Shown: positions 10,081 to 29,667 of the stretch, piece by piece
How positions within the stretch are numbered: the stretch's first letter is position 1
Layout of the letters: each line of letters opens with the position of its first letter
From: Pirellula staleyi DSM 6068
GTDB lineage: Bacteria > Planctomycetota > Planctomycetia > Pirellulales > Pirellulaceae
Direction: 5' to 3'
DNA length: 32,000 nt
Assembly: GCA_000025185.1 (NCBI GenBank)
Contig: CP001848.1
Span: forward strand, 1,350,001-1,382,000
Position numbers and translations under genes: made by a program
Notes under the pieces: generated by a model
The model's database searches: none
What the model saw: only the letters and a program-made list of their open reading frames with translations
Told to the model about the DNA's origin: nothing

Positions 10081-10269
10081 TAAGACCTCGCAGAGGAAAG
10101 ACTCAAGGTGTGGTGGTCGCGCGAAGGAGCGGCTGAAGAAATCGAGACTTCGCTATCGTATTCTCGCGCACCAGTGCGGTGCAAATAACGCGCGATTATT
10201 TGCCATCGCAAGCTTCTCGCCAACAGCTGCGCATGCGTTGGGCCTGCGAAATACGGAGTCGATGCTGCT

Positions 10270-13161
10270 TTACGACGTCGATGGCGAACTTGTTGATGAA
10301 CTGGGAGGCGTGGCAGCGGCCGCGCTGCTGCCCGCCACTTTACCGACCACAAACTTCCCCTCGATCAGCCGCAATTCGCGCACTGGGCGTCCATAGAGGA
10401 GCTCGGTCATTTTCTGTTTCAGCGGGGTAAGTTGCTCATAGACTTCCACCGTTGCGCCGCTGGCGAGCAGTAGCAACAGCTTCTCGAGCGAGCAGTCGAG
10501 TGACAGATGTTTGAGTCCAAAACGTTCCGACAGCATCGTGACATCGGCCAGCAGCTGCGCCGCTTGAGGATGGTGATCTTCACTTCGATAGACAGCGGCT
10601 TGCGCCAGCTGCGCCGGGAGGATCATCTCGAGGAGCCCTGTTTTGCGCGCGAGTGTGCCGGCTTGCTGCACATGCTTGCGCGCCTCTTCGCGATAACGCC
10701 AATCTCCCGAATGAGCGCGGAGCGCGAGGTAGAGTCGTCCAAGAACAAAACGATAGCCAGCCGCGATGGCAAAATCGTGTGGCGCAACATCATCGATCTC
10801 GCGCCAGGCAGTTTTTTCGGCAAGCGGAAAATTACCCGAGTCGAAGACTGCTTCGACATGCCAGTGCTCGGCCCCCAAGAGATGCGACGACTCGCGCGGA
10901 ATCGACATCGCAAGCTTGTAGCGTTCGATCGCTTCGGCAAACTTCCCTTTCAGATGCAGCACGCGAGCTGTCAGCATCACGGCATCGCGAAACAGCTGCT
11001 TCTGTTTCGCCAGGTCGGGTAGCGCCACAAGTTCATTCACACGGCAGGTGGCATCTTTGACACGTCCTGCCAGCAGCAGTTGCTGTGCGAGTTCGATCAG
11101 CAGGTGCGGAACAAGTTCCAGGTTCCCCCCTTGCTCGTCGCTAGGTAACTTCGCGCGCTCGAGGTGACGCGTTGTCGTGGCAATCGCTTCCGAGAATCGT
11201 CCCGCGCTTCGCAGCGCATGCCGATGGAGCTGAGCAACGCGCCACTGATCGCTCGCCGATAGCCCAGCGCGAGGTAGCTGCGTGGTAGGGTCGATCAACA
11301 GCTCCAGGGCTCCCGCGCGATAACAAAAATCGCGCACCGTTTCGAGTTTCAAAACATCCTCCTGCTGCCAGAGTGCAGCGAGGAACGACTCGTGCCAGGC
11401 CGAGTGATAATCGCCTGCCTCAGTCCGGTGCTGCATCGCGCGGAGCAGCGTGGCGATACGTGGAGGAGTGATCGGCCCGTCGGACTTTTGGAGCTGAAGC
11501 TCTTCGGCTAGCCAGCGGTGGAGCTGTGCACCGCGAGAGGACTCCAGTGGTGCCTGACGACGCAAAAATGCCTCGCGCGCGACGCGCTGTAGCACCACGA
11601 GCTGCGTGGCCGGATGCGCGACGATTCCTGCCCCGCGCAGCTGCGCGAGAATCGCGCGGAGCTTTGTGCCGTCGAGCTGCACCAGCGTAGCACCCCACGG
11701 TTGCTGCTCAGCGGAAACATCGCTATTAGCCTGGAAATCCCGGCGTAAATGCCCGAGTAGGTTCTCGATCGTCGTGACTTCGAGCGGCTGATCGGCGCAT
11801 GCCAGTAGCGATAACAATTCGGTGATAGCGGGTTGATTCCAGGCCTCGAGCAGTTCCTGCAGCAGCCCATCGATTAGCTGGTCGAGCGGGATCGACGTCA
11901 GCCGCTGCGCGTGGCGTTTGAGCGTTGCCGGGAAACTGCCACGAGCCGCGCGGCACGCAGCGATCAAGCGCGCGGCGATGAAGTGACCCGACGCGGCGGC
12001 AGCAGCATCGTCGATTTCGCTACTCGTGACCGGGTAGCGCAGTTTTGCCAGCAGCTCGCGGCTGTCGGGCTTCGCAACGCGGTCGACCTGGATCGTCGAA
12101 AGGCCCTCCCCTTCCCACGGCGCAAGATCGGCCAAAGGCTGCTTGGAGATCACAATGCAGAGCCCATTGTGAGCGTGCAGCAATTTGCGGAGCAGCATTA
12201 AGAGCGCATCGTCGGCAATGCGCGCAGTCCCATGCTCGTCGGCGCGCAGCAAGTGGTCCAGACCATCGATCACTAGCAGGGTTCGTTCCTCTTGCAGTAG
12301 TCGCGCAAGACGTGCACCGGTTTCCCACCAAGCTTCGGGCGCGTCTTCGACATCGCTCAAAAATTGCCGGAGCGCGAAGCAGAACTCGTCGGCTGAATGA
12401 TGTCCCCCCGCGCGCTGCTGTTCGTCGAAAGACCAGCAAAACAGACGTTCCGCGCCGCGCCATGCTTCCCGACTGAGCAGTGCCAAAAAATGCGCGACGA
12501 GCGAGCTTTTCCCAACCCCCAACTCGCCGACGAGATTCACCACACGTGTGCCGGGCTCCATCCAAGCGACACCGAGTTGATGCAGCAGAATTTCTCGCTC
12601 GACCGATTCCGCTGCGACCAGTGCATGCCGAAAATTACCGAGCATCAGTTGCGATTCGGGAAGTGCACTCCACGCGAGTTCACTTGGCATTGCTCCGATA
12701 TGCACCAGGTGTCCCACCGCGCGGCGAGCGATGTAGGCCATGGCGCGATATGCCTCGCGCAGGTCGCGCTTCTCGAGTGGCTGCTGAAGTTCGCGCGACA
12801 CCTGCACCGTCACCGTCTCGGGCAACAGTCCCCAGGGACAATCCTTCAGAATGACTGGGAGAAATTCGGTATCGCCTGTTTGACCACGTGTCACTTTCAC
12901 GTTGGCCCGAATCACGAGTCGAGGGAGCGCTTCCTTCATCATCGCGCGCGATGCCAGAAAGTCGGGCGACACAAGCAGGATCGCGAGCCGTGCGCTCTCG
13001 ACCCCACGTAGTCCCTCGGCTGTCAGCCGCCCCGCTTCATCGGCGGTAGCGAGTCGCACATGCTCGCGCCCTAGTCCCAGGGCGAGCAAATGATTGGCAA
13101 TTAGCGTGGGCCATTTGGTGTCCCATTCATTCGAGCAGAGAAGAATTAGGGGATCGCTCAT
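10270..13161 (-). CDS. TIR-like domain / P-loop STAND NTPase / TPR-like helical repeat protein (963 aa)
   Basis: N-terminus LILLCSNEWD...ARLAILLVSPDFLASRAMMKEAL matches the TIR_2 pattern. Walker A GELGVGKS at nt 12505-12528. Walker B LLVIDGLD at nt 12256-12279. Long helical-repeat C-terminus. Confidence 0.8.
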   Translation of the reverse strand: MSDPLILLCSNEWDTKWPTLIANHLLALGLGREHVRLATADEAGRLTAEGLRGVESARLAILLVSPDFLASRAMMKEALPRLVIRANVKVTRGQTGDTEFLPVILKDCPWGLLPETVTVQVSRELQQPLEKRDLREAYRAMAYIARRAVGHLVHIGAMPSELAWSALPESQLMLGNFRHALVAAESVEREILLHQLGVAWMEPGTRVVNLVGELGVGKSSLVAHFLALLSREAWRGAERLFCWSFDEQQRAGGHHSADEFCFALRQFLSDVEDAPEAWWETGARLARLLQEERTLLVIDGLDHLLRADEHGTARIADDALLMLLRKLLHAHNGLCIVISKQPLADLAPWEGEGLSTIQVDRVAKPDSRELLAKLRYPVTSSEIDDAAAAASGHFIAARLIAACRAARGSFPATLKRHAQRLTSIPLDQLIDGLLQELLEAWNQPAITELLSLLACADQPLEVTTIENLLGHLRRDFQANSDVSAEQQPWGATLVQLDGTKLRAILAQLRGAGIVAHPATQLVVLQRVAREAFLRRQAPLESSRGAQLHRWLAEELQLQKSDGPITPPRIATLLRAMQHRTEAGDYHSAWHESFLAALWQQEDVLKLETVRDFCYRAGALELLIDPTTQLPRAGLSASDQWRVAQLHRHALRSAGRFSEAIATTTRHLERAKLPSDEQGGNLELVPHLLIELAQQLLLAGRVKDATCRVNELVALPDLAKQKQLFRDAVMLTARVLHLKGKFAEAIERYKLAMSIPRESSHLLGAEHWHVEAVFDSGNFPLAEKTAWREIDDVAPHDFAIAAGYRFVLGRLYLALRAHSGDWRYREEARKHVQQAGTLARKTGLLEMILPAQLAQAAVYRSEDHHPQAAQLLADVTMLSERFGLKHLSLDCSLEKLLLLLASGATVEVYEQLTPLKQKMTELLYGRPVRELRLIEGKFVVGKVAGSSAAAATPPSSSTSSPSTS

Positions 13162-13360: not shown

Positions 13361-15517
13361 CTAGTTTTGAAGGAAATCGGGAAGGTAGCCCCCCGATTCG
13401 GTAGCAGGCGACTGCTTGCGCTTCGCCGCTTGCTCCGCTTCCCGCAGCGCCAGGTAAGAGCCCTGCATCAGCCGATCTTCGCGCCCTTCACCCGCTTGCA
13501 CCACGATGGCCGACTCGCTGAGGAGTTTCTTCTCGGCGACATTGATGGCATAGCAACGTGTTTGGCAAAGTCCACAGCCGACGCACTTGTCAGCTACGAC
13601 GCTGGGAGCCAAAAATCCGCTCGATTCAATCGGCTCGCCTTGGGCATCGACTTGTGTACCAACTCGCACAAACTCAATTGCGTGATAGCCGGCCGCGATG
13701 CAATCGTCGACGCACAGCTGACAGGCTTCCTTACCCGCGTGCGGCAGGCAGGTTTGCAAATCGACAATCGCGAGCCCCATTCGCGCGACACGTTTTTCCT
13801 CGAGCGGAATCGCGCGAATCGCACCTGTCGGACAAACCTGACCGCAGGCATTGCAGCTCGATTCGCACCCGGCCCAATCGGGCTTGGCGGCCGGTGTCCA
13901 CAACCCTTCCAGCCCTTGCTCGAATCCGAGCGGCTGTAAAACATTGTTCGGGCATGCCTTAAAACATTCGCCACAGCGAATGCACAGGTCGAGGAACTGC
14001 GGCTCGGGTACACTTCCCGGTGGTCGAATGGGAAGCAGCTGAGGATCGCTCGTCAGATCAGCTCCCAGCACTTTCGTGGCGATGGTGAGCGATGTGGCCC
14101 CCACAATCGTGGCGGCTGAACCAGCAGCGAGCGACAAAAATCCGCGGCGTCCGAGTGCCGTTTCGTGCGTCGGTGGATCGTTCTCCACTTTCAGCTGAAT
14201 CAAGTTCCAGCGCTCGACAAACTTGATCGCTTCGGTCGGACAAACCCCAGCGCAGGTCTGGCACAGCGTGCAGTCGGTGGTTCGCGTGGTGAAGTCGGGC
14301 TTGATCGCATCGAACGGACAAATTTGCACACACTTGTTGCAGTGGATACAGCTCGATTCGACCTTCCGCTCCGTAGCGCGAAACAGATTCGATACCGAGA
14401 AGACCGCCCCACTCGGACAGACATACTTGCACCAAAACCGAGGCCGCAGAAAACCGAGCCCCAGCACGACAGCAAACATCGCCAGCGAAAGAAAATGCCC
14501 CGCCGAAGGTGCCGGCACATTGTGCCAGCCGCGCGAGGCTGCAGTTTGCAGCGGCTCGAACAGGAACAGCATCCCGCGCGTGATGACCGGAATCGCCGCA
14601 AAATAGCCACTCACCAAAACGCCGAACACCGAGCAGAGGAGCGTTCCCGCGAGCAGGTAGTACTTGATATGCACCCACCAACCATCCTCGGCGACTCGAA
14701 AGCGCTTGACGCGCTTACCGATCCCCCAGTCGAACAGATCGATCAGGGTCCCGAGCGGGCAGAGATAGCCGCAGAAACCTCGCGGAACGAGGATCGCAAC
14801 CACTAAGATTCCGATTGCCGAGACGAGCGACCAAACCCAAGTCCGACCGGCAATAGCGGTCGAGATCGCCACCAAAGGATCGATCACCAGCAGACTCTCG
14901 GCATGCAGCAACTCTTTCGAAGCGAGCGAGTCGGCATAGTGCGACGGCCAGGCATCAGGGGCCGTTTCCGAAAGGGTCCAGGGTCCTCCGGGATCAAACT
15001 GCAGTTCCTCGAGTTTCTCCGCCGGAAAATCAGGTTCGGCAGCGAGCACGAGCGACTCGTTTTGCACCTCGCGCACTGTGACCGGACCTAGCAGCGCAAG
15101 CTTTCCCGTCGCGGGATCGGCGCTCGATACAAAGTACCGCTGCAAGGGCCGAATCCCGACGAGCGCGCCAGGCTGGGCGGTGATCGCGATCGTCTGGTCC
15201 TCGGCAGGAGCAGCGGGCGCAAGGCCGGGCCAAACCTGCGCCGGACGCGCCGAGTAGGGCCACGCAACGTAGAAGAAAAGGAACAGAAACAGCAGAAAGA
15301 AAACTGTTTGCACCACACGGCGCACCGGCGCGGAGAGCCAACTCGGACCGAGTCGCTTCAGCCACTGCCGCACCAGCCCCGGTTTGGCTGTCGCACGATC
15401 GGAAAACAGAGCCGCCGGCAGGATCTGCTTAGCGATGCGCACTAGCAGTGTGTCGGGCTTGAGCTCGGTCCCCTTCTTCGGTTTTCGCAAGAAGGGGAGA
15501 AACATATCGAGTCGCAT
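13361..15517 (-). CDS. Membrane polyferredoxin, NapH-like (CX3CP x2 + 2 [4Fe-4S]) fused to a NapG-like poly-[4Fe-4S] module
   Basis: FCGYLCP (nt 14756-14773) and FWCKYVCP (nt 14414-14431) CX3CP motifs within TM helices. CIHCNKCVQICP, CTLCQTCAGVCP. Internal twin-arginine-like RRGFLSLAAGSAATIVGA (nt 14078-14152). Then CIRCGECFKACP, CNACGQVCP, CQLCVDDC, CVGCGLCQTRC. Confidence 0.85.
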   Translation of the reverse strand: MRLDMFLPFLRKPKKGTELKPDTLLVRIAKQILPAALFSDRATAKPGLVRQWLKRLGPSWLSAPVRRVVQTVFFLLFLFLFFYVAWPYSARPAQVWPGLAPAAPAEDQTIAITAQPGALVGIRPLQRYFVSSADPATGKLALLGPVTVREVQNESLVLAAEPDFPAEKLEELQFDPGGPWTLSETAPDAWPSHYADSLASKELLHAESLLVIDPLVAISTAIAGRTWVWSLVSAIGILVVAILVPRGFCGYLCPLGTLIDLFDWGIGKRVKRFRVAEDGWWVHIKYYLLAGTLLCSVFGVLVSGYFAAIPVITRGMLFLFEPLQTAASRGWHNVPAPSAGHFLSLAMFAVVLGLGFLRPRFWCKYVCPSGAVFSVSNLFRATERKVESSCIHCNKCVQICPFDAIKPDFTTRTTDCTLCQTCAGVCPTEAIKFVERWNLIQLKVENDPPTHETALGRRGFLSLAAGSAATIVGATSLTIATKVLGADLTSDPQLLPIRPPGSVPEPQFLDLCIRCGECFKACPNNVLQPLGFEQGLEGLWTPAAKPDWAGCESSCNACGQVCPTGAIRAIPLEEKRVARMGLAIVDLQTCLPHAGKEACQLCVDDCIAAGYHAIEFVRVGTQVDAQGEPIESSGFLAPSVVADKCVGCGLCQTRCYAINVAEKKLLSESAIVVQAGEGREDRLMQGSYLALREAEQAAKRKQSPATESGGYLPDFLQN

Positions 15518-15523
15518 AGAATG

Positions 15524-16831
15524 CTACTTTCCACCGGCAGCGTTGCTGCCCGATGCGAGAGCCTTGGCCGTGGCGTTGATGATCGCCTGACTCGTAATCG
15601 TAGCATTGCTCGTGGCATCCACCCCCTTCACCCCTTGCCGTGCTTGGATCTTTTGGGGCGTGTCGGTCAGAGCGGAATAGAACTGCTTCTCGCGATGCTG
15701 AATCACCGAAAGGGCCGTGATCTTGCCACCTTTCACGGTCAGCGAAATGCGCACGGGACCTTCGTAGCCAATCGACTCTTCTTCGTACGTTCCATCGGCC
15801 ACTTTCGTCGCGTCGGCGAGATCGAACAACTTCACCGCCTCGATGCCGCGCTGGGCCCGCTCTTGGCTCCGCTTCAGCCGACCGTTAGGTGGGTTGGCTT
15901 GTTTGATCGCTAACACTTTTTGATACCACTCGAGCGATGCTTGCGGATTACCAGCCTGACGATAACCGTCGGCGACGTAGAGATAGGCTTCGTCGGCACC
16001 GCTACCAACATTAGCGGCAAACAGCTTCGTAAACTGCACCGCTTTGGCAATATCTCCCATGTCGGCCCAGAGCTTAATGTGGGCCGTCGAGATCGTCTTT
16101 TGCTTACTCATCAGTTCGACTGCCATCGCTTTATTTCCCAAATGGAAATAACACTCGGCAAGCTTGGCGATTAGCGAGGGAGGTCCATTCCGCTCGACTC
16201 CCGCTTGTCGCCACCAGTAAGCAGCACGGGCATAGTCTTGATGCAAGTTATGGTACATGCGCCCCAAATCAAGCATCGCGCGTGTCCGTTTGGCAGGATC
16301 ACTTTGATGCGTCAGCAGCAGGTGGTGCATCAGCTTCACCCCTTCTTGCCACTTATTAGGGTTGGGATTAATCACGTCCCAAACATACTGCCCTACATTT
16401 TTTTGATTGTTCCAGCCTCCCGGAGGCTTATCGGGCCAGCTCAGATCGAGCGATTCGGGCCAGTCGGTCGAGGCGTTATCAAACCAGTCGGGAGGCTGAC
16501 GACCAAGGTCGCTAATCATTTTTTCAACCTCCGCCTTCGTCCGGCGGACTACCATTCCCGCTGCTGGTTCGGCGGCAGCTTCCCGCTCGTTGATCACATA
16601 CCGTTTGCCATTGATGGTGACGGTGTGAATGGTGCTGAGGTCATAAGTTTTGGTGATCGTCTTTCCCGCTTGGGTCTCCTCGACTTTGATGGTCGAGCTA
16701 TCTTTGGAAAGAACTTTGGCCTCGAGCTTCTGGCCGTCGAGAAACACGATCTCGGCCGCGCTCAGCGGAATCGATAAAGCCAGGCATAGTGCCATGGTCA
16801 CGAGGGGCGTAAATGATTTTCTAGCAATCAT
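15524..16831 (-). CDS. Secreted TPR-like protein with C-terminal FMN-binding (FMN_bind) domain
   Basis: Start moved to the ATG at 16831 (MIARKSFTPLVTMALCLALSIPLSAAEIV is a signal peptide); the upstream 69 codons overlap apbE. The C-terminal FMN_bind region carries the flavinylation-type motif DATSNAT (Thr codon at 15599-15601). The ATG overlaps the apbE stop (ATGA at 16828-16831). Confidence 0.85.
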   Translation of the reverse strand: MIARKSFTPLVTMALCLALSIPLSAAEIVFLDGQKLEAKVLSKDSSTIKVEETQAGKTITKTYDLSTIHTVTINGKRYVINEREAAAEPAAGMVVRRTKAEVEKMISDLGRQPPDWFDNASTDWPESLDLSWPDKPPGGWNNQKNVGQYVWDVINPNPNKWQEGVKLMHHLLLTHQSDPAKRTRAMLDLGRMYHNLHQDYARAAYWWRQAGVERNGPPSLIAKLAECYFHLGNKAMAVELMSKQKTISTAHIKLWADMGDIAKAVQFTKLFAANVGSGADEAYLYVADGYRQAGNPQASLEWYQKVLAIKQANPPNGRLKRSQERAQRGIEAVKLFDLADATKVADGTYEEESIGYEGPVRISLTVKGGKITALSVIQHREKQFYSALTDTPQKIQARQGVKGVDATSNATITSQAIINATAKALASGSNAAGGK

Positions 16832-17877
16832 GAGCGCACCTCGCTGATCAAAGGAAATCCGGGGGTGGCGAGCGTGGTGCCATCGCGCAGCGTGAAGTAG
16901 GCATCGATTCCGGGGCGACTGGCGAGGAGCTTCATGCTGCGGACGGGACCAAGCACAAAGCAGGCGGTTGACCACGCGTCGGCAAGCGTGCAATCGGGTG
17001 CTGCCACCGAGCAACTCGTTACGATTTGCGGCGAGCAACCGGTGTGAGGATCGAGCAGGTGATGATCGGTCGAGTGGGGAGAGAAGCGGGTGGCATAGTC
17101 CCCGGATGTCGAGAGGGATCGCCCCTGCAGTTCCACGAGCATCGGTGCCCCGCTCATCAGCGGATTAGCGATTCCAACTTGCCAATCTTGGGAGTCGGTT
17201 TTAGTGCCCAGCGGTCGAATTTCCCCGGCATCAATCAAGGCATGCTCAATTCCCCATTCTTTTAAGGTCTCGAATGCCTGGTCAGTTGCATAGCCTTGAG
17301 CAATTCCATTGAAAGTTATTTGCATCCCAGGATCTTGAAACGTAATGCAGTCGCTTTGAATATTGATTTTGCGGTAATCAACAAGTTGGCGAGCCGTTTG
17401 AAGATCGCTCGGACCTGTAGTTTGAAGATGGTGTTTGGCAGCGTAGTAGTTCCAGAGTGGCTGAACGCTGATATCAAACGCCCCTTGGGTGGTTGAAGAG
17501 ACGGCGTGAGATTGCTGGAGAATGTCGACCAGCATCGCCGAGGGGGTATCGAGCTTCCCCACTCGGTTGAGCCGCGAAATTTCGCTATCGGGGCGATAGA
17601 TGCTCAGCGACTGCTCGACACGCTCGATGGTGGCAAAAGCTGCGTCGATCGCGGCTGTGGCGTACTGCGAATCGTCGTGAATCACGCCGATGGCGACTTT
17701 GGAGCCGAGTGCGTGGGAGGTTTTGCGGTGGAGTCGCGAGTGGTTGGCATGCGGCTCGCGTGGCTGTCCACTGAGTGACCAAGTTGCCAGAGACGAGGTT
17801 GCCAGCGAACTGGCTATGACGGCGCCGAGCCCGATCGATCCGAGCAGGAGCTTGCGCCGTGAAAGTGTGGGTTGCAT
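16828..17877 (-). CDS. apbE: ApbE-family FAD:protein FMN transferase with Tat-type signal
   Basis: Start set at the ATG at 17877 (MQPTLSRRKLLLGSIGLGAVIASS, twin-arginine signal). ApbE motifs SIYRPDSEISRLN, FDISVQPLWNYY, FNGIAQGYATDQA, GDYATRF...HHLLDPHTG. Confidence 0.9.
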   Translation of the reverse strand: MQPTLSRRKLLLGSIGLGAVIASSLATSSLATWSLSGQPREPHANHSRLHRKTSHALGSKVAIGVIHDDSQYATAAIDAAFATIERVEQSLSIYRPDSEISRLNRVGKLDTPSAMLVDILQQSHAVSSTTQGAFDISVQPLWNYYAAKHHLQTTGPSDLQTARQLVDYRKINIQSDCITFQDPGMQITFNGIAQGYATDQAFETLKEWGIEHALIDAGEIRPLGTKTDSQDWQVGIANPLMSGAPMLVELQGRSLSTSGDYATRFSPHSTDHHLLDPHTGCSPQIVTSCSVAAPDCTLADAWSTACFVLGPVRSMKLLASRPGIDAYFTLRDGTTLATPGFPLISEVRS

Positions 17878-18469
17878 CAGCCGCCTCGAAGGAGTGTTGC
17901 TCGCGAGTGAATTTGCCCCTGGTGAATCGCCAGGCGCGAGCTTGGGTGATGGGGCGAATTCTAGCGAGCGGGAGTCGCGCGCTGCAACGAAAAAACCAGC
18001 GGCTGAGAAATCGATGCACCAGAAAAACGACTTTAGTAGTTCTACTTTAGTAGTCGTAGTGGTTCGTTGAGACTCTGTCTCACTGATGCCGCGTTGTGGG
18101 AGCCTCGACAGCAGTCGCTTGCACCGGCGATTAGCGACCGCTCGATCCCGGCCATGATCGAAAAAAGGGCGGAAGTTTTCCTGGCTCTGCCTGAGGGGGT
18201 TAAGAGCCCAGGAAATGCGGTGCGGCTGGTGCGGTAACACTTGGGGTGTGCTGACCGTTTGTGGCAGTGAGCGAGACATGGTTTACGGTTAATGGCGTGG
18301 ATGTGGACCCTCTGGGGGCAAAGGTAGTTAGGGTGTGGGTGCAGTATGCGGTAGATGCGGGTAGTCGTATCGCCTGAAAAGGCGCTATCTATCCCACAAA
18401 GGGATGGTTTAGTTGCTTGACGGTGTTCGAACCGCTGATTATTCTCCCCCCCTGCACCACTCTGTACTT

Positions 18470-21505: not shown

Positions 21506-21706
21506 CCATCATTATATGATTAGTAGTAAGTATCGATTTGAGATGCGTGAAGCAATGTTTGTGACTAATACCTAAATAAAAAATAACAATAGATTGAAGC
21601 TGCGGAGTGCATTGAGATCAAACTTATATCGCGTTCCTACGATACTCCCCACCGAATCTTCTGCCTGCACTAGCCCACCACCAACTTCCTGCAATAGCGA
21701 CCCACC
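21506..21706 (+). promoter_or_regulatory. AT-rich intergenic region, probable promoter for the GTPase sub-operon
   Basis: The 21506-21640 stretch is far more AT-rich (by eye about 30 % GC) than the about 62 % GC flanks and contains an aaataaaaaataacaa A-tract. It lies directly upstream of 21710. No sigma-factor motif is assigned. Confidence 0.35.
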
Positions 21707-21709
21707 GTG

Positions 21710-23002
21710 ATGTCGACGAAAGCCCCGCGCCAAGATCTACCGCGCAGCGATGACGTGAAAATTCGATTGCGTATCACCTGTCCGCATTGCTGGTCGAACT
21801 TTGCGACCGAAGATGTGCACTGGCTCACCGAGCACGAACTGCTGCGCGGCGATCCGATGCTTGGGCCCGATGCTCAGCAACGATTCTTGCCGACACGTTT
21901 CGACGTCGCCGGAAATGCCATCGATTCGAGCGGCATGACCTGCCAGAGCCTTGCCTGTCCTAAGTGCCATCTCACTTTGCCTCGCGTAATGATTGATATG
22001 GCCCCGGTATTTGTTTCGATCCTGGGAATTCCCTCGTGCGGCAAGTCCTATTTCTTGTCGTCGATGACGTGGCAGATGCGGCGCACTCTGCCACACTACT
22101 TTGCCATCGACTTTAGCGACGCCGATCCCGCCTCGAACGAAATCCTGAATCAGTACGAGCGACAGCAGTTTTTAAACGCTGATTCGCGTGCGATTGTGAA
22201 GCTCGACAAAACCGAAGAGCAAGGATACTGGTACGACGCGGTGCGTTATGGCGATCAGATCGTCAACTATCCGCGTCCTTTTCTCTTCGGGCTGCGACCT
22301 TTGTTTGGGCATCCCAGTTTTGAGAATCGGAGCGATGTCTCGCGCGTTCTCTGCATGTACGACAACGCGGGCGAGTCGTTTCAGCCCGGCAAAGATACAT
22401 CGGCCAACCCCGTCACGCGTCACTTGGCCCGTTCTCAAGCGATGCTGTTTCTATTTGATCCCACGCAAGACCATCGATTTCGCGCAGCGTGTGTCGGTCG
22501 CTCATCCGACCCGCAAATGACCTCCACGCGGGCTCAAGTCTATCGCCAAGATACCGTGCTTCACGAAGCAGCATCACGCGTGCGCAAATACACAGGACTT
22601 AAACACGACGAGCGTCATAATCGACCTTTAATTGTGGTTGTCACGAAATACGATGCTTGGGAACCGCTTCTCCCTGGTTTGTTAGATACACCTCCCTTCT
22701 TGCCGCAAAAGAGTGGTGCGGCTCATGCACTCGATTGGGAGCGTGTACGTGAGACCTCGGCGAAGCTTCGTCACCTCCTTTGGCAGCACTCGCCCGAATT
22801 GGTATCTGGGGCTGAAGCGTTTGCTCAAGAGGTGGTCTATGTGCCCGTCAGTGCCACCGGCTGTGCTCCGGTCACCAATGAGCAAGGAGCAATCGAGGGG
22901 ATGCGCACCGGAGATATCCAGCCGAAGTGGGTCGAGGTGCCGATGCTGGTGGTCCTCGCGCGATGGTCGAAAGGTCTGATTCCTTATAATCGTCGGACTT
23001 AG
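21710..23002 (+). CDS. Zn-ribbon-fused P-loop GTPase (TRAFAC-type, all G motifs present)
   Basis: CPHC...CPKC (nt 21779-21964). G1 GIPSCGKS (22025-22048). G3 DNAG (22361-22372). G4 TKYD (22643-22654). G5 SAT (22850-22858). Confidence 0.85.
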   Translation: MSTKAPRQDLPRSDDVKIRLRITCPHCWSNFATEDVHWLTEHELLRGDPMLGPDAQQRFLPTRFDVAGNAIDSSGMTCQSLACPKCHLTLPRVMIDMAPVFVSILGIPSCGKSYFLSSMTWQMRRTLPHYFAIDFSDADPASNEILNQYERQQFLNADSRAIVKLDKTEEQGYWYDAVRYGDQIVNYPRPFLFGLRPLFGHPSFENRSDVSRVLCMYDNAGESFQPGKDTSANPVTRHLARSQAMLFLFDPTQDHRFRAACVGRSSDPQMTSTRAQVYRQDTVLHEAASRVRKYTGLKHDERHNRPLIVVVTKYDAWEPLLPGLLDTPPFLPQKSGAAHALDWERVRETSAKLRHLLWQHSPELVSGAEAFAQEVVYVPVSATGCAPVTNEQGAIEGMRTGDIQPKWVEVPMLVVLARWSKGLIPYNRRT

Positions 23003-23058: not shown

Positions 23059-25593
23059 ATGTCGCAGGAGATTATTTATACATCCGCACCACAAGGCTTA
23101 CGCCCAGGTAGTTTTGGGTTTTGTATTGTGGCGATGACAACCGGAATGCCCACGCCTTTGGCCGAGCGGCTCGAGTCGTTGTCGGGGTATCGCCATGTCT
23201 ATTCCCCTGGCGATCCGCGCGCGGTGAATAATCCTGTCGTCCATTCGCATGTGCAGCTGAAGATCGGTGCTCAAAAGTATTTTGTCCTCTCGCGACTCGC
23301 AGACGCTGGTTTCGACTATTCGCAGCGCACCAACAAGCTGGTGCATCATGTGGCTCTCGAGCCATCAGAGCTGGTTCCGGCGGGACCAGCTTGGGTTCTT
23401 TCGCAGCCCGGATATATGGTCACCTCGTTCAGCGGACAGCCCCATTTGCTTCCGGCGGGACGTCGCACACCAGCGGGCGAGATTCCGCGCACCGTTTGTC
23501 ATCGCTGGGGAGAGTTGACCGGCGATCCAGGTTGGGGTGCGGTGCTGGCTTCGAGCGCGCTCACCGGGGGAGCACTCACGCCTGGTGCGGGACGCCCGGT
23601 CCATCTGATTGTTCCCGAGGGGCTCGATCCCTTGCCGCTGATCGTCGAAGCGCAGTCGCTTCTCCCTTCCCAGCGGCGCTGGGAGGTTTCGTTCTCCACC
23701 TTCTTCACACGCTTGCCCCCCGGCGTCGAGTGCCAGTGGCGCTGTGTCCTGGCGGGAACTCCCGAGGCGACCGCGCTGGCCGGAATGCGTGGCGATTTGG
23801 TGATCGATCTCACGCGTCCTCTCGGTCCTGCTCCCGACACTCCCCTCTCCGCTGCAGCCCGCACTGGCGTGTTTCCAGCCGAGCCTGCTCCAACCACTCG
23901 GGCGATTCCGACGACACAGGCAGCTCCGGTGCAGCTGGCTCGACCGGTGCGCGAGTCGGCTGCGGAGGAACTCCGTTTGGGGCCACCTCCGGCACCCGGC
24001 GGCGCAAGAGCTCGCACCAGCAGCAGCGGCGTGATGATCATCGACGACGGCCCCCCCGAGCTTCCTGGCGAAACGACTCCACCCCCGATGACGAGCCTCC
24101 ACCGACGAAGCGCGCCGTCCGCTGGATTTGGTTGGTCGCATCTGACAGCGGTCGCCATGGTGGCTGCGTTGGTGGGTGTGGTGGTGGGCTATCTTTTCCG
24201 TTCCTCGCAAACCGATCCCGCCCCGATCGCCACCCAAACAGCCGCCCCTGCAATTCCCGCTACCGACAACCAGCCCCCTGCTCCTCCCGCTGCAGCGGCT
24301 CCCGACCCTCAGCCTCCCGCCATGCCTTCACCAGCACCACCCGCTACTCCACCAGTCTCGCCAGTAGGTGAGAAGAATACGGCCAACGCCGAGAATCCGG
24401 CGTCAAAAAGCCCTACTGGCGATACTACTCCTGCGGCAGCAAATGGCGGGACTGCTCAGCCGATGCCCGCTGCAGAGAATCCGCCCACGCCATCAGTTCC
24501 CACGCCTGTCCCTGCACCCCCGGCGGTCGTCGAACTGAAGTACGGCCCCGAACCCCTCGAGTCGATCCTGGCGCTGAAGCATGGATCAGACCCGCGTGAG
24601 ATCAAGCTGGCTAGTTTTCCAAAATCAGACGGGAGCGCAATATCCAAGATTGAGCTTCTGGGCGCACCAAAGTCACTACGCATTGAGAAATCAAAGGATA
24701 ACTCTTGGGTGGTGCAGTTTAACAACGGAACAAAAATCGGGAGTGACATACCAACGGCCGAGTTTACTCAGGTCGAAGAAGGTAGTAGTTTCGCGCTGAT
24801 GGCATCTCAGCGGACGCCTGGAGTAGCATGGAATGATCTATGTGGTAGCGTGATTCAAGTGATTCACGAAAAAGGTCAAGAACATATCCTTTATCTAGTC
24901 AAGCCACATTTAGTTGTTACTAAACAAGGGAAAATATCGCCCTGTTTTGTGGAGTATAACATGCCTTATCTAGAGCTGATGGATAGGTTTGACAAAGAAC
25001 TTTTCTTTGATGTGTCTGATATACACATTGAAACCATTCCGAGTGGCAATTGGAAATCAGCTACGAAGGGCAGATGGCAGCATACATATGTATGTCATAA
25101 TGCGACTGAGATAGACACTCAGGTAGAGGCAGAATTCAGTGGGCAGCCTCGAAAAACAACAAAGATAGCAATTCGCGTGCGATTTCATCAGAAAGATTCA
25201 ACGAAGCTACTCGATGAAAATGCAATTCAGGACATCGGCAATCGGTTATCAAACTACAGGAAAGTATTTCTAGATGAGTGGGAGAAGGCAAAGCTAGACA
25301 GAGATAATGCAGAAAAGGATTTCAATGCTGAAGCAAAGCCAGAAGAGAAAGAGAAGAAGCGACAAAAGCTTGATGTATTGAAAAATAAATTTATCGAGAT
25401 CGATAGCAGTCGCGAACGTTTCGATTCGGATTACCCCAAAATAATTACTACATCAGAGGGACGAGAGGTCATCGCTTCACTTAGTAAAAATGCCTCCGCT
25501 AAGTCAGCTCCTAGAGCTAAGGTAACGATTGGACGTGAGATCAAGACCGAGTCGCAAAGTATTAAGGTGCCTTATTTGTTACTTGTGGATTAG
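23059..25593 (+). CDS. Single-pass membrane protein with GAP1-N-like (GTPase-associated protein 1 N-terminal-like) cytoplasmic domain, Pro-rich linker and low-GC extracytoplasmic C-terminal module
   Basis: ATG at 23059 preceded by gggagagg. The N-terminus MSQEIIYTSAPQGLRPGSFGFCIVAMTTGMP...LSGY resembles the xxYTS..GL..G..GF opening of GAP1-N-type domains; this is from memory and unverified. TM at nt 24130-24198. C-terminal beta-rich domain plus Lys/Glu coiled coil. Confidence 0.75.
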   Translation: MSQEIIYTSAPQGLRPGSFGFCIVAMTTGMPTPLAERLESLSGYRHVYSPGDPRAVNNPVVHSHVQLKIGAQKYFVLSRLADAGFDYSQRTNKLVHHVALEPSELVPAGPAWVLSQPGYMVTSFSGQPHLLPAGRRTPAGEIPRTVCHRWGELTGDPGWGAVLASSALTGGALTPGAGRPVHLIVPEGLDPLPLIVEAQSLLPSQRRWEVSFSTFFTRLPPGVECQWRCVLAGTPEATALAGMRGDLVIDLTRPLGPAPDTPLSAAARTGVFPAEPAPTTRAIPTTQAAPVQLARPVRESAAEELRLGPPPAPGGARARTSSSGVMIIDDGPPELPGETTPPPMTSLHRRSAPSAGFGWSHLTAVAMVAALVGVVVGYLFRSSQTDPAPIATQTAAPAIPATDNQPPAPPAAAAPDPQPPAMPSPAPPATPPVSPVGEKNTANAENPASKSPTGDTTPAAANGGTAQPMPAAENPPTPSVPTPVPAPPAVVELKYGPEPLESILALKHGSDPREIKLASFPKSDGSAISKIELLGAPKSLRIEKSKDNSWVVQFNNGTKIGSDIPTAEFTQVEEGSSFALMASQRTPGVAWNDLCGSVIQVIHEKGQEHILYLVKPHLVVTKQGKISPCFVEYNMPYLELMDRFDKELFFDVSDIHIETIPSGNWKSATKGRWQHTYVCHNATEIDTQVEAEFSGQPRKTTKIAIRVRFHQKDSTKLLDENAIQDIGNRLSNYRKVFLDEWEKAKLDRDNAEKDFNAEAKPEEKEKKRQKLDVLKNKFIEIDSSRERFDSDYPKIITTSEGREVIASLSKNASAKSAPRAKVTIGREIKTESQSIKVPYLLLVD

Positions 25594-25664
25594 CCGTGAC
25601 GTTTGCGATGTGGTGGATGTCACAGGTCACGTAAGATTCAAGTAAATTTGTTAGTGAGTTGGTT

Positions 25665-28628
25665 ATGCTTGATTATCAGCGGATTGTGGAAGAGATTCAG
25701 GCGGCGATTCATTCGCAGGGCACGCTCGATTGGGATTTGCTGCGCGATGCGTCCGCCGAATATGCCGCTGCTTGCGACGAAGTGAACACCCGGCTCGAGC
25801 GGATCAGTAAGCTGCTGCGGCAAGGACTTCGAAGCGAGGCGATTCAGCTCGCCGATTTGGAGCCCCCGCTGCTCGATTCAGCGGCAATCCTCGATTTTCC
25901 CGAGCTTCCCGAGTGGGTTCAGCTGCTGACGATCAACGGCATGGTTCCGCCCCCTGCGATTCGGATCGAAATTGCCAGCGATCTCAATGCGGCCTATGCC
26001 CTGGAAGCGCCGCTGATGGCGCATCTGAAATCGCACCGACTTCTGGCCCTCGCTCGTGCTCCCCTCACTGTCCGCATTCAAACCTTGCGACAGATTCACC
26101 GGGCCGATGCGCATAACCCGATCTGGGCCACTGATCTCACGATCCTAGAAACTGCGCGACAAACCGAGGTCGCCCGGCAGGCTGAAGAGTGCACCACCAG
26201 TCGACACTTGCCAGCGCTCGAGCAACTTTGCCACGAGCTTGCCATGCCCGACTGGCTAGCGCAGCCACGTCGCGACTTCATCGATTCGATTGCCAGGCGC
26301 CGCGATCGTTTGGTGGTCGTACAGGCTCGCGAGAAACTGGAGGCGATCGAAGGGGAACTCGCCAACTGCTATGGCGCGTTCGATGTCGCAGCTGGTCGTG
26401 CAGCGCGCGACGCTTGGAATAGGGAAGCGGCCAAGGCGGGACTCTTGGCCGACGATCCACTGGCTCAAGCGGCAACTCCCGCACTCGCCTGGCTCGCCGA
26501 ACAAGATCGTCGCGAAGCGCGGGATCGCGAGTTCGCAATCGCTGTCGATAACCTCGAGCGGGCACTCGAAGAAGAAAAAGATCGCGCGACACTCACGCGT
26601 CTGTTTCACGCTATAGAACGGCTCGAGCAACGTCCTCCCGATCTCTTGTTGCGGCGCTATCACGAACAGATGCGGCAGTTCGAAACCGATCAGCGGCGCC
26701 GCTTTGTTCTGATCACCTCTGCCACCGTCCTCGCCTTGCTGCTTGTTGCCGGTGGGATCAGCTGGGTGGCAATCCGGGCGAGCGAACACCGCCGCATGCT
26801 CGCGACAGCAGAACAGCTACGTCAGCTGATTGATAGCTCGCAGTGGAAACAGGCGTCTGAGCTTTTGGCGCAGCTGCAAGTCAGCGACCCGCGTATCGCG
26901 CAGGCGACCGAAATTCAGTCGCAAAATGTTCGTCTGCAGGAGCTCGAAAAAGCGGAGTCCGAACGTCGTGCGGCGTTCGAGCAGTATCTGCAGCAGGCAC
27001 GCAGCTCCGATCCCGAGCGCCCCGATCGTCTGGCGCTCTCGGAGGCCAAAAAGGTGGCCATCGGAGCTGCAGAGAAAGCCGACGTTGCTCGACTCGAGTC
27101 CGAGTTTGCCAGTCTCGATCGCGCTCGGCAACAAAAGCGAGATTCCGAGTTCCAAGCTTCGCTGGAAACGATTTTGTTCGGAGTTGAGAAGGTCGAGGCG
27201 ACGCTGGCCGACGATCCGGTTGCGCCAGTCAAGGAGCTCGCGCAGCTGGTTGCTGAGATCGATGCACTTGGGAAAAGTACCGGTGGTGTCTCGACCTCTT
27301 TGATCGCGCAGCTGGCACCACTCAAGCTGCGGCTCACGTCGCTTCAGCAGCAGCGTGCGGCGCGTATGGACGAGTATCGCGCGCTCGAACAGTTGACGAC
27401 GCATATTGGTCAGCCCGAGGCCTACCAAAGTGCGCTGCAGAAGTTTGTCGAGAAGTTTCCGACATCGCCGCTGGCGATAGAGTTTGCACGAACGACAGCC
27501 GAACTGCCGTACTGGGAAGTGCAGGAGCGGTGGCGAAAACTACTTGGACAAAAGGCCTTTCGAAGCTTGCCTAACGTCCAGCCGCTCGAGGCTGCCAAGC
27601 TCCTCGAGGAGGCGAATGAAATTCAGCTGTTTGGTCAGCCATCGCCACTCGCTGAAAAGTTTGATGCGAAGCGAAAGTATCTGCAAGGAATCGCCGACCG
27701 ACTAGACGACGATGGTCAGCCGATTGTGAAACAGCTCGATGAAGTCTTTAAAGATGTGTTCATCACGGGACTTTGGTACGTCGAAGCAACGGGTGGCGAT
27801 CGCTATTACTTGTCAAAAAGTTTCGAGCAGTATCTTGCAAAACCGGGTGAAACGATTGGATTTGAACATATCGTTTCATTTGACTTGCAAACGCTGACGA
27901 AGCGACACCCAAGAAGCGGGATCGCGCGGCATGGTACGGCGCCGCAAGCAGCTTTAGCGAGCGCCGCGCGAACGCATCTGGCGATCGTCACCAACGGCGA
28001 TTGGGAGAAAGGGATGTATGGTCTGCTCCGCGCGACACTCGACGACAGCGAGACCGATCCGCTGCTGAAGTTCATCTTGGTGCAGCGCATTTTGGAGACA
28101 GCCGAGACAGGGAGTCACTCCATTGCCGAAGCGCTGGGGCCTTCCATCGCGCGGGTGAAAGGGGCCGATGTCGATGTCACGGCCAACTGGCTCTTGCCGA
28201 CCGATGCAGCGGCAGCAGCAGCGCGGCTGAAAGCGCGAGCCCTCTTGGGATCGCTTAGCGATCTATCGAGCGAGGCGCGCAAAGCGGCAGAAATTCTGCG
28301 CGCTGATACGAGTCCCATCGAGGTTCCTCCGGAGTGGATTGGCGTGCTCGTTCCGATCGGCGAAGGACGCTGGAAATGCCTCGGAAGTCCGCAAGTAGCT
28401 GTGGGGGAACTCTATGTCATCGATCCGACTGCCGAGAAGTCGGCGGGTGGAATTTGGCAGCGCGTGGGGACTTACGATCGAGCCAAAACGACCTGGCAAA
28501 ACGGAACATCGAACTCGATGGCGGCGGGGCGACCCTTGTACTTGGTGACTCGGGGGCCGGGGGCGCTCAGCTCTCCTGCTGACCAGCCGAGTGAAGTTTC
28601 CAGCCGCCGTTCCGAGCGACTGCAATGA
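25665..28628 (+). CDS. Large all-helical single-pass membrane protein (987 aa): about 345-aa cytoplasmic helical domain, TM, about 615-aa extracytoplasmic helical/coiled-coil domain
   Basis: ATG at 25665 (MLDYQRIVEEI). TM FVLITSATVLALLLVAGGISWVAI at nt 26703-26774. Heptad-rich Ala/Glu/Arg/Gln sequence on both sides. No family recognised. Confidence 0.8.
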   Translation: MLDYQRIVEEIQAAIHSQGTLDWDLLRDASAEYAAACDEVNTRLERISKLLRQGLRSEAIQLADLEPPLLDSAAILDFPELPEWVQLLTINGMVPPPAIRIEIASDLNAAYALEAPLMAHLKSHRLLALARAPLTVRIQTLRQIHRADAHNPIWATDLTILETARQTEVARQAEECTTSRHLPALEQLCHELAMPDWLAQPRRDFIDSIARRRDRLVVVQAREKLEAIEGELANCYGAFDVAAGRAARDAWNREAAKAGLLADDPLAQAATPALAWLAEQDRREARDREFAIAVDNLERALEEEKDRATLTRLFHAIERLEQRPPDLLLRRYHEQMRQFETDQRRRFVLITSATVLALLLVAGGISWVAIRASEHRRMLATAEQLRQLIDSSQWKQASELLAQLQVSDPRIAQATEIQSQNVRLQELEKAESERRAAFEQYLQQARSSDPERPDRLALSEAKKVAIGAAEKADVARLESEFASLDRARQQKRDSEFQASLETILFGVEKVEATLADDPVAPVKELAQLVAEIDALGKSTGGVSTSLIAQLAPLKLRLTSLQQQRAARMDEYRALEQLTTHIGQPEAYQSALQKFVEKFPTSPLAIEFARTTAELPYWEVQERWRKLLGQKAFRSLPNVQPLEAAKLLEEANEIQLFGQPSPLAEKFDAKRKYLQGIADRLDDDGQPIVKQLDEVFKDVFITGLWYVEATGGDRYYLSKSFEQYLAKPGETIGFEHIVSFDLQTLTKRHPRSGIARHGTAPQAALASAARTHLAIVTNGDWEKGMYGLLRATLDDSETDPLLKFILVQRILETAETGSHSIAEALGPSIARVKGADVDVTANWLLPTDAAAAAARLKARALLGSLSDLSSEARKAAEILRADTSPIEVPPEWIGVLVPIGEGRWKCLGSPQVAVGELYVIDPTAEKSAGGIWQRVGTYDRAKTTWQNGTSNSMAAGRPLYLVTRGPGALSSPADQPSEVSSRRSERLQ

Positions 28629-29667
28629 ACGTGGCGAATCGAATGTTTCAGGGGGGCCACTGTTCCCCCTCACCACTCCCCACCGAACCTCCTTCCACCC
28701 CCGACGTGCTCCATTGACCGATCAGTTTTACATTCGAATTCGTGGGCGTGTGCAAGGCCCGTTTGATAGCGAAAAGTTACGTGGACTCGCGCGGCGTGGC
28801 CAGTTCAGCAGGCTCTATGAAGTCTCGCGCGATGGCCAAACATGGCAGCCAGCGAAGGACTTTCCCGAACTCTTCGCGGCACCAGCAGCGCAGGTTGCGC
28901 AGCCAGCAGCAGCGCAAACCACTGCGGCTCCCTCCGCTGCATCGTCGAAGGGGAACTCGGCATCCAGCGGTGGAGGATACAGCTTACAATCCCCCGCGCC
29001 GCAAAACGCAACGAGCGCGGCCACTTGGTACTACGCCTATCAAGGTCGCGAGCAAGGACCGATCGATTTTAACACGCTGGCCAGCATGTTCAGCTCACGG
29101 CAGTTAGCGCCGGAAACTGAGGTCTGGAGTCAGGGGATGATCAACTGGACTCCGGCCCAAAACGTGCCCGGCCTCGTACCGCCACAAGCGCCGACCAAGA
29201 GCAGCATGGGAGTGAGTTCCTATAGCACCGAGAGTGTCCGTAGCGAAACCGAACAGGTCTCGGCCGCGACCATCCGCGCACTGACCGACTCGAGACCTTG
29301 GGTCGCGTTCATTGCGATCATCGGATTCCTCTACGCCCTTCTGACCCTCCTCAGCGGCGTGTTTCAGCTGATCGTTGGAGCAAGGTCGGGCGTATTTCCA
29401 GTCACTGCGAGTGGACTCACGACGATTGTGATGTCACTGGTGATTGCCTTCGGTGCTTGGCTGCTGGTGAGTTTCGGAAGTGCCATTTCGAACGTCGAAC
29501 GCTCGCGCCGTGAGGCGTCTCTCGTTCGGGCTTTGTCGACACTCAAATCCTTTTGGGTTTATATCGGCGTGGTCTTAATTGTCATCCTTACGTTTGTGAT
29601 TCTAGGAGTCATTCTCGTTATTTCAGTCGCAGGGACGATTGCAGGGTCCTTTCCCGAGCTTGATTGA
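28591..29667 (+). CDS. Double GYF_2-domain protein with polytopic membrane C-terminus (true start possibly TTG at 28714)
   Basis: GYF_2 no. 1 FYIRIRGRVQGPFD...GQTWQPAKDFPELF (nt 28723-28875). GYF_2 no. 2 WYYAYQGREQGPID...VWSQGMINWTPAQNVPGL (nt 29026-29175). At least 3-4 hydrophobic helices in the last 130 aa. The GTG at 28591 would overlap the upstream gene by 38 nt. Confidence 0.8.
   Translation: MKFPAAVPSDCNERGESNVSGGPLFPLTTPHRTSFHPRRAPLTDQFYIRIRGRVQGPFDSEKLRGLARRGQFSRLYEVSRDGQTWQPAKDFPELFAAPAAQVAQPAAAQTTAAPSAASSKGNSASSGGGYSLQSPAPQNATSAATWYYAYQGREQGPIDFNTLASMFSSRQLAPETEVWSQGMINWTPAQNVPGLVPPQAPTKSSMGVSSYSTESVRSETEQVSAATIRALTDSRPWVAFIAIIGFLYALLTLLSGVFQLIVGARSGVFPVTASGLTTIVMSLVIAFGAWLLVSFGSAISNVERSRREASLVRALSTLKSFWVYIGVVLIVILTFVILGVILVISVAGTIAGSFPELD

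Follow-up and report, generated by a model that had tools for sequence, protein, structure and literature searches.

A probable zinc-ribbon GTPase of the DO-GTPase2 family and its conserved GAP1-N2-type operon in Pirellula staleyi DSM 6068

In 2020 Kaur, Burroughs, Iyer and Aravind defined the DO-GTPase family purely by sequence analysis (eLife 9:e52696, PMC7159879). Its members are TRAFAC GTPases with a glutamate in the Walker B motif and N-terminal zinc ribbons (ZnRs), and a GAP1 protein is encoded downstream or fused to the GTPase (PMC7159879). According to the same study one or two N-terminal zinc ribbons are found in 60% of the family and two paralogous GTPases in 38% of the systems, a single GTPase being the majority state; planctomycete GAP1-N2 systems carry a pair of GYF domains fused to a region rich in transmembrane segments, and a conflict or defence output is predicted. 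We analyzed a stretch of 32,000 nucleotides of the genome of Pirellula staleyi DSM 6068 (contig CP001848.1, positions 1,350,001 to 1,382,000), called the window below, in which positions 21710-23002 encode a protein that a sequence-only reading had described as a stand-alone GTPase with a split N-terminal zinc ribbon. The results indicate that this protein is very probably a zinc-ribbon GTPase of the DO-GTPase2 family, acting as the GTPase subunit of a GAP1-N2-type 'GTPase-centric' system of the planctomycete GYF-pair subtype. Kaur et al. had already reported the family, its zinc ribbons, the Walker B glutamate and its association with GAP1, so that these are not new.

The open reading frame lies on the plus strand, with an ATG start at 21710 and a GTG at 21707, and encodes 430 amino acids. 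A word-indexed search returned 1477 homologues of the protein, with a top identity of 86%, and an exhaustive search of 50%-identity cluster representatives gave 1213 matches at E ≤ 0.001. Judged by its homologues, the gene is genuine. Conservation was counted in 145 diverse relatives taken from the cluster representatives and aligned, using ungapped rows only. The motifs GIPSCGKS, DNAG, TKYD and SAT, which the sequence-only reading had listed as intact G1, G3, G4 and G5, were all found at the places claimed and were almost invariant in the realigned relatives. In the P-loop (GxxxxGK[ST]) G106 and K112 were kept in 144/144, in G3 residues D218, G221 and E222 were each kept in at least 144/145 (E222 in 144/145), and in G4 K313 was kept in 141/142 and D315 in 142/142, the opening position of this motif being T, S, N, P or A across the relatives. 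The G5 serine, S381, was present in 127/137. This pattern, nearly invariant across the 145 relatives, is far beyond chance.

The remaining motif was assigned by conservation and position. The pair K167-T168 is kept in 144/145 relatives, sits shortly before the strand 175-180 that precedes G3, and pairs in a profile alignment with the KT of a second DO-GTPase from the same genome; we infer that it represents G2/switch I. The pair D250-P251, directly after β4, is also invariant. From the P-loop lysine K112 to the Walker B aspartate D218 there are 106 residues, close to the 100 estimated earlier, as compared with 41 in H-Ras (K16 to D57), and this spacing is a constant of the family (median 107, mostly 105-109). 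By these alignments all five G motifs are intact, and the protein has a TRAFAC-type G domain of guanine type with a Walker B glutamate.

The N-terminal module, of about 75 residues, showed the same degree of conservation. The CPHC (residues 24-27) and CPKC (residues 83-86) pairs are separated by 55 residues, as had been read from the sequence, and their cysteines are near-invariant: C24 and C27 in 137/137 relatives, C83 and C86 in 141/142. The length of the module is fixed: of the 117 relatives with this module, 115 have a distance of 49-51 residues from the first CxxC to C78. In the AlphaFold2 model the two knuckles are each flanked by short strands, with a strongly conserved β-rich insert between them, and the module folded alone gave a predicted local distance difference test score (pLDDT) of 91.1. 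H26, H42, C78 and H87 are conserved yet replaceable (H26 is replaced in 43/137 relatives, C78 in 17/142 and H87 in 10/142), and a second zinc site made of these four residues was rejected because they are substituted among relatives. Since only the four CxxC cysteines are obligatory, the alignment supports one predicted zinc site, its two halves set apart by an insert of constant length (about 55 residues), in line with the split ribbon proposed before. An additional compact CxxC...CxxC ribbon occurs in 11 of the 59 relatives having an N-terminal extension of at least 40 residues, and Zn_ribbon_4 was found in one ESM Atlas cluster; the 'two ZnRs' of Kaur et al. are probably relatives with such an extra ribbon in the extension.

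No solved fold matched the isolated module (best VIA-align Z 2.2, best Foldseek E 0.18). Several weak Foldseek rows (Mis18/Yippee, YPEL5, the RIG-I CTD, the cereblon CULT domain and the MetRS zinc knuckle) were set aside as a basis for a fold assignment, all having E > 0.1 and template-modelling (TM) scores below 0.35; several of them are single-zinc β-rich modules with two distant CxxC pairs. The best match of the family profile in a search of the PDB, to designed consensus ankyrin repeats (residues 40-93, positions 21827-21988; E 0.002-0.005), was also discarded. These matches run through the pattern G-NA-D--G----LA---HL of the profile, and they were taken as a consensus-repeat artefact because the region is confidently predicted to be β-rich and no natural ankyrin was among the 60 best matches listed. 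The invariant CPxCH of the second knuckle (21956-21970) fits the haem-attachment pattern CxxCH. Haem attachment is unlikely, and a c-type haem site at CPKCH was rejected, as the protein has no hydrophobic signal-like N-terminal segment and the module is a ribbon knuckle. The sequence-only reading had left it open whether the ribbon binds nucleic acid or a partner. Nothing was found to support the nucleic-acid option, and the module with its conserved insert would rather be a protein-protein interface.

The only Pfam match of the protein was to DO-GTPase2 (PF19993), with 26.4 bits and E 6.4e-6, and PF19993 is also listed for it in a precomputed database annotation. When 50 aligned relatives were compared with both DO-GTPase profiles, 49 matched DO-GTPase2 (E ≤ 0.01, best 2e-9) and eight matched DO-GTPase1; this comparison, which had been suggested together with the sequence-only reading, places the protein in DO-GTPase2. 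The nearest ESM Atlas clusters all carry PF19993 and aligned over residues 16-430, with a TM score of 0.94 to a planctomycete cluster and 0.90 also among the PF19993 clusters, and with scores of 0.75/0.84 and 0.74/0.76 to actinobacterial and firmicute 'Double-GTPase' clusters. When the family profile was aligned with the canonical 301-residue DO-GTPase of the same genome, the second CxxC knuckle, the P-loop, the KT pair, DxAGE and TKxD matched. The protein thus has the features of a DO-GTPase, namely DNAGE with E222, a predicted N-terminal zinc ribbon, a GAP1-N2 gene downstream and a family-like predicted structure. A paralogous second GTPase was not found: the window contains one DO-GTPase match, and the cluster proteins have no other P-loop or [NT]KxD motif.

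The AlphaFold2 model of the whole protein (mean pLDDT 90.8, predicted TM score (pTM) 0.89) confirmed the G-domain fold. By the DSSP string and the motif positions the G domain covers about residues 98-425, that is about 330 residues, with the canonical core kept and inserts at five places: after α1 (132-167), between β2 and β3, in α3, between α4 and β6 (330-371) and before the last helix. The β2-β3 insert consists of a hairpin (183-197) and a helix (204-210) and is absent from the short 301-residue paralogue. Foldseek returned generic G-domain matches only, such as atlastin, EF-Tu and Obg (1udx), at E 1e-6 to 1e-4 with TM scores of about 0.3 (0.2-0.3). These E-values are what would speak for a housekeeping GTPase (Era, Obg, EngA, FeoB or translation-factor-like) that merely stands beside membrane genes, but scores this low reflect the shared G-domain core only. 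No match to such a family was found in Pfam or NCBIfam at E ≤ 0.01, the NCBIfam scan giving no match at all; a PDB sequence search gave nothing meaningful, and a PDB profile search reached EngA/Der only at E 0.095-0.56. The gene is furthermore present in about 5% of the sampled planctomycete genomes. An inactive pseudo-GTPase in the same position is opposed by the catalytic motifs, which are all invariant. We consider both of these explanations effectively refuted; neither the sequence searches nor the fold searches revealed a housekeeping family, a finding that the sequence-only reading had named as counting against it.

The genes around the GTPase gene were compared in 48 loci from species-representative genomes in which 9 kb or more of sequence follows the GTPase gene, using tblastn with the window proteins. 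All matches were on one strand and in one order. The GAP1 gene was found in 43/48 loci, in 42 of them directly downstream of the GTPase gene; the gene for a bitopic protein of about 980 residues was found in 43/48 and that for the GYF protein in 42/48. On the other hand, the MotA/ExbB-like gene was present in 21/48 (about 44%) and the genes for the first and second single-transmembrane coiled-coil proteins in 18/48 and 16/48, respectively. The two genes upstream, of 784 and 243 codons, were found in 2/48 and 1/48 loci. They are outside the conserved set, and therefore the conserved unit starts with the GTPase gene. The core is a four-gene operon encoding the GTPase, GAP1, the ~980-residue membrane protein and the GYF-transmembrane protein, with the MotA/ExbB-type trio as an optional addition. 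Loci with this tail include L037, L038, L044 and L047.

The region 21506-21709, strongly AT-rich within surroundings of about 57% GC, marks the upstream edge of the conserved genes and is likely to be a promoter or regulatory region; a scan for the sigma-70 consensus and for terminators around the GTPase gene, including this region, remained at background level. In a crude hydropathy scan the GTPase showed no convincing transmembrane segment, the one borderline window (residues 93-111, score 1.67) corresponding to strand β1 and the P-loop in the model, and every other protein of the cluster had at least one such segment. The earlier description of the GTPase as the only soluble component of the cluster holds at this level. 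The GYF protein of the window is of the transmembrane-rich form, and a trypsin form occurs in the related locus L006. The main text of Kaur et al. (PMC7159879) says nothing of the linkage to MotA/ExbB, and their supplementary text contains no mention of Pirellula staleyi, GYF or MotA. In the 3' part of the GAP1 gene, at 25000-25999, the GC content dips to 0.474, the surroundings having 0.55-0.62.

Contact between the GTPase and GAP1 was examined by complex prediction and through natural fusions. The complex of the GTPase with GAP1(1-275), GTP and zinc reached an interaction prediction score from aligned errors (ipSAE) of 0.45 (runs 0.44-0.51), and the best of three controls scored 0.00; the runs agreed in at least 86% of contacts, and the pLDDT of the partner was at least 84. 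Of 80 solved complexes 58 reached the ipSAE mark used, as did two of 110 mismatched pairs; at ipSAE ≤ 0.60 it was reached by only seven of those 80 and both of the mismatches that passed. A natural GTPase-GAP1 fusion was found among the close relatives (P0127) and suggests direct binding. The model gives weak support to a direct binding of the GTPase to the cytoplasmic N-terminal domains of GAP1. Other fusions of close relatives join the GTPase to a Ser/Thr kinase (four cases), FHA (two), an AAA_35 and TPR STAND-like module, fn3 and FGE-sulfatase; from their domain content, these fusions fit a signalling hub that would receive phospho-dependent inputs in some lineages.

A mechanism can be proposed in which the cytoplasmic GTPase would bind GTP specifically through its xKxD motif and dock on the cytoplasmic GAP1-N2 and GAP1-M domains of the membrane-anchored GAP1, the zinc module serving as a protein interface. 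GTP/GDP cycling at the cytoplasmic face of GAP1 would relay the signal, with E222, at the position equivalent to Gln61 of Ras, as the candidate catalytic residue. The GTPase would in this way couple the variable GAP1 ectodomain to the 980-residue protein, the GYF-transmembrane protein and, where present, the MotA/ExbB-type motor. The GTPase would then be the switch of the system, the role assigned to it in the sequence-only reading.

Several points weigh against the assignment to a DO-GTPase2 system with a defence role. The Pfam score is 0.6 bits below the curated gathering score of PF19993 (27 bits) and covers just residues 197-316, and in a scan of the whole genome the protein scored 21.3 bits to this family. 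The hhalign comparison with the canonical paralogue was weak (probability 18%, E 1.3e-3). The complex prediction was graded as weak support by the tool, without a reported interface. PADLOC had no model matching the GTPase or five neighbours, leaving the defence role without independent support, and no experimental study of any member of the DO-GTPase family was found in the searchable literature. Finally, the cluster proteins gave no Pfam match to fn3, and an FNIII-repeat protein is said to be typical of GAP1-N2 systems. FNIII repeats may have escaped the hidden Markov model (HMM) here, because they evolve rapidly (PMC7159879).

The composition and distribution of the operon bear on a different explanation of the system as a constitutive planctomycete envelope machine rather than a defence system, in which the GTPase would gate or position a proton-driven MotA/ExbB-ExbD-like motor and trans-envelope scaffolds, by analogy with the control of the Agl/Glt gliding motor by MglA or with the Tol/Ton systems. 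The partners of the GTPase are all membrane proteins, a MotA/ExbB-like channel and two coiled-coil proteins with an aspartate in the transmembrane segment follow the core in the window and in 21/48 loci, Pfam showed no enzymatic effector of toxin type in the cluster of the window, and MglA is among the structural neighbours of the GTPase (VIA-align Z 11.2-11.7). However, the motor trio was not found in over half of the loci, indicating an accessory module and not a core one, and relatives swap in trypsin or FGE-sulfatase effectors. Among 300 other planctomycete genomes sampled, the system was found in 15, with a patchy distribution within families and genera (in one genus, one genome of three), which is unlike a core envelope machine. 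Several loci are moreover flanked by mobile-element genes: three of four metagenomic loci (L006, L007 and L009) have genes for a transposase, integrase, resolvase or Prim-Pol no more than 10 kb from the GTPase operon. An envelope machine is thus an unlikely explanation, and the distribution is consistent with the operon being an accessory, mobile island. Close relatives of the GTPase occur in at least 579 species-level genomes, the named ones being Planctomycetota, mostly Pirellulales. The P. staleyi genome itself is complete, in one contig (99.99% complete).

The positions of the features of the GTPase and its operon are collected in Table 1. Two further gene groups lie upstream on the minus strand. 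The first (7195-13161), about 8-14 kb upstream of the GTPase gene, encodes a 961-residue Ser/Thr protein kinase and a 963-residue NACHT-type STAND NTPase, and a functional link of these genes to the GTPase system is possible. Fusions to kinase or STAND-like AAA_35 modules occur in close relatives of the GTPase, as noted above, and in locus L007 a kinase gene stands just upstream of the related GTPase. The second group (13361-18279), divergent from the cluster, is a tight three-gene unit encoding an ApbE flavin transferase, a protein with FMN_bind and TPR domains and a polyferredoxin with multiple 4Fe-4S centres; it looks unrelated to the GTPase system.

Table 1. Features of the GTPase gene and its operon, in positions of the window
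Feature	Position	Strand	Description and evidence
AT-rich 204-nucleotide intergenic region, likely start of the conserved transcription unit	21506..21709	+	promoter inferred only
ZnR-GTPase gene, probable DO-GTPase2 family	21710..23002	+	430 residues; AlphaFold2 mean pLDDT 90.8, pTM 0.89
N-terminal zinc module, residues 14-97	21749..22000	+	CPHC knuckle 21779-21790, fixed β-rich insert, C78, CPKCH knuckle 21956-21970
G1/Walker A GIPSCGKS, residues 106-113	22025..22048	+	motif reading and family alignment
Proposed G2/switch I, K167-T168	22208..22213	+	conservation, position, alignment to paralogue
G3/Walker B DNAGE with family-specific glutamate, residues 218-222	22361..22375	+	motif reading and family alignment
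G4 TKYD, residues 312-315, guanine-specificity motif	22643..22654	+	K313 141/142, D315 142/142
G5 SAT, residues 381-383	22850..22858	+	S381 127/137
GAP1: cytoplasmic GAP1-N2 and GAP1-M, one transmembrane segment, variable ectodomain	23059..25593	+	Pfam 99 and 53 bits; predicted direct GTPase partner
989-residue bitopic helical membrane protein, conserved third gene	25659..28628	+	one transmembrane segment; no Pfam family; 43/48 loci
Two GYF_2 domains, then about four transmembrane helices, conserved fourth gene	28591..29667	+	Pfam 99.6 bits; 42/48 loci
Optional tail: MotA/ExbB-like channel and two single-transmembrane coiled-coil proteins with Asp in or at the transmembrane segment	29748..32000	+	Pfam MotA_ExbB 36 bits

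The DO-GTPase/GAP1 systems are widespread and their function has so far been predicted from sequence. The present analysis adds to the published prediction a putative single split zinc site with a fixed insert, a proposed G2 at K167-T168, the resemblance to YcjX discussed below, counts that define a four-gene core and its optional motor tail, and a weakly supported prediction of the GTPase-GAP1 complex. These details refine the existing prediction without changing it, and no new kind of protein is involved. The locus is a reasonable place to test GAP1 binding, the switch role and the output, as it lies in a complete genome that holds both planctomycete subtypes.

Among solved structures the G domain was compared with YcjX and with small GTPases by VIA-align. 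YcjX (DUF463, PDB 6nz4/6nz5) ranked at the top, with Z 14.1 and 13.8 over 247-253 aligned residues and a root mean square deviation of 4.3-4.5 Å. Rag/Gtr came next, with about 178 residues aligned at Z 12.6-13.3, and the values for Arl, Rab, Ras and MglA were Z 11.5-12.5. The core of Rag/Gtr, Arl/Rab/Ras and MglA superposes on that of the window GTPase at Z 11.5-13.3 over about 160-180 residues, and these proteins share with it a guanine-specific G4 of the NKxD type and the switch logic. In contrast to the small GTPases, the window protein has the large G domain with its five inserts and the extended G1-G3 distance described above, a glutamate and not a glutamine after DxxG, and the N-terminal zinc module.

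The likeness to YcjX goes further, since the YcjX structure is the best solved match and aligns about 70 residues more than any small GTPase. The unusual motif set recurs in E. coli YcjX (GLSRSGKT as the GxxxxGKT P-loop, DYPGE at a distance of 101 residues from the P-loop lysine, and TKAD), whose gene is followed by the membrane-protein gene ycjF; the DxxGE Walker B, the TKxD motif, the G1-G3 distance of about 100 residues and a membrane-protein gene downstream are thus common to both. The window GTPase might on these grounds be a distant member or a sister of the YcjX family, with a mode of action like that of the YcjX/YcjF pair, in which a stress-induced GTPase has its partner in the membrane. 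This kinship appears quite improbable. At E ≤ 0.001 the DUF463 HMM (PF04317) matched nothing in the genome, the window GTPase included; when the family profile was compared with E. coli YcjX by hhalign, 24 P-loop residues only were aligned, with a probability of 5.5%; and the margin in Z over the Rag-type GTPases is below 1 at the deviation given above. YcjX also has no zinc module, the spacing from G3 to G4 is 204 residues in YcjX and 94 in the window protein, and its partner is YcjF (DUF697) and not GAP1. YcjX is not mentioned by Kaur et al. (PMC7159879). Because the DUF463 HMM was blind to the protein, hhalign aligned only the P-loop and the margin in Z was small, YcjX was kept as a neighbour only: in these models it comes closest among solved structures and may be a distant relative, but it is not the family of the window GTPase.

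A bolder reading would combine these likenesses, with the DO-GTPases and YcjX as sister lineages of an ancient membrane-partnered 'DxxGE' clade, the planctomycete form as a GTP-gated controller of a MotA/ExbB-type proton-driven envelope motor and not a defence switch, and the split single-zinc module as a novel small fold through which the G domain would dock onto GAP1. We regard this combination as a long shot. The DO-GTPase2 assignment remains the preferred one, and for it the closest comparisons are with the second system of the same genome and with the systems of Kaur et al.

The second DO-GTPase/GAP1-N2 system of P. staleyi lies outside the window, at 5.995 Mb on the minus strand (locus L001, G000:C1:5994979-5997500). 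Its 301-residue GTPase scored 44.8 bits to PF19993 and 43.9 bits to PF19975, and the locus also holds a 246-residue GAP1-N2 protein and a 411-codon gene whose product looks, by position and sequence, like an FGE-sulfatase-type protein. It matches the FGS-linked planctomycete subtype of Kaur et al. (PMC7159879). Like the window system it has a zinc-ribbon GTPase (GPSGAGKT, DLAGE and TKAD) followed by a GAP1-N2 protein. Its ribbon, on the other hand, is a compact CxxC-x10-CxxC without the 55-residue insert, the GTPase lacks an equivalent of residues ~173-204, GAP1 is short and looks soluble, and no GYF protein, 980-residue protein or MotA is present.

Compared with the description of Kaur et al. 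2020, the window system differs in having a single GTPase and no paralogous pair, one split predicted zinc site and not 'two ZnRs', no FNIII protein detected by Pfam, and a linked MotA/ExbB-type trio in about 44% of loci. It resembles the systems described there in the DxxGE TRAFAC G domain, the N-terminal zinc ribbon, the GAP1-N2 and GAP1-M domains encoded directly downstream, the GYF-pair and transmembrane-rich protein in the operon, the membrane-proximal partners and the planctomycete host.

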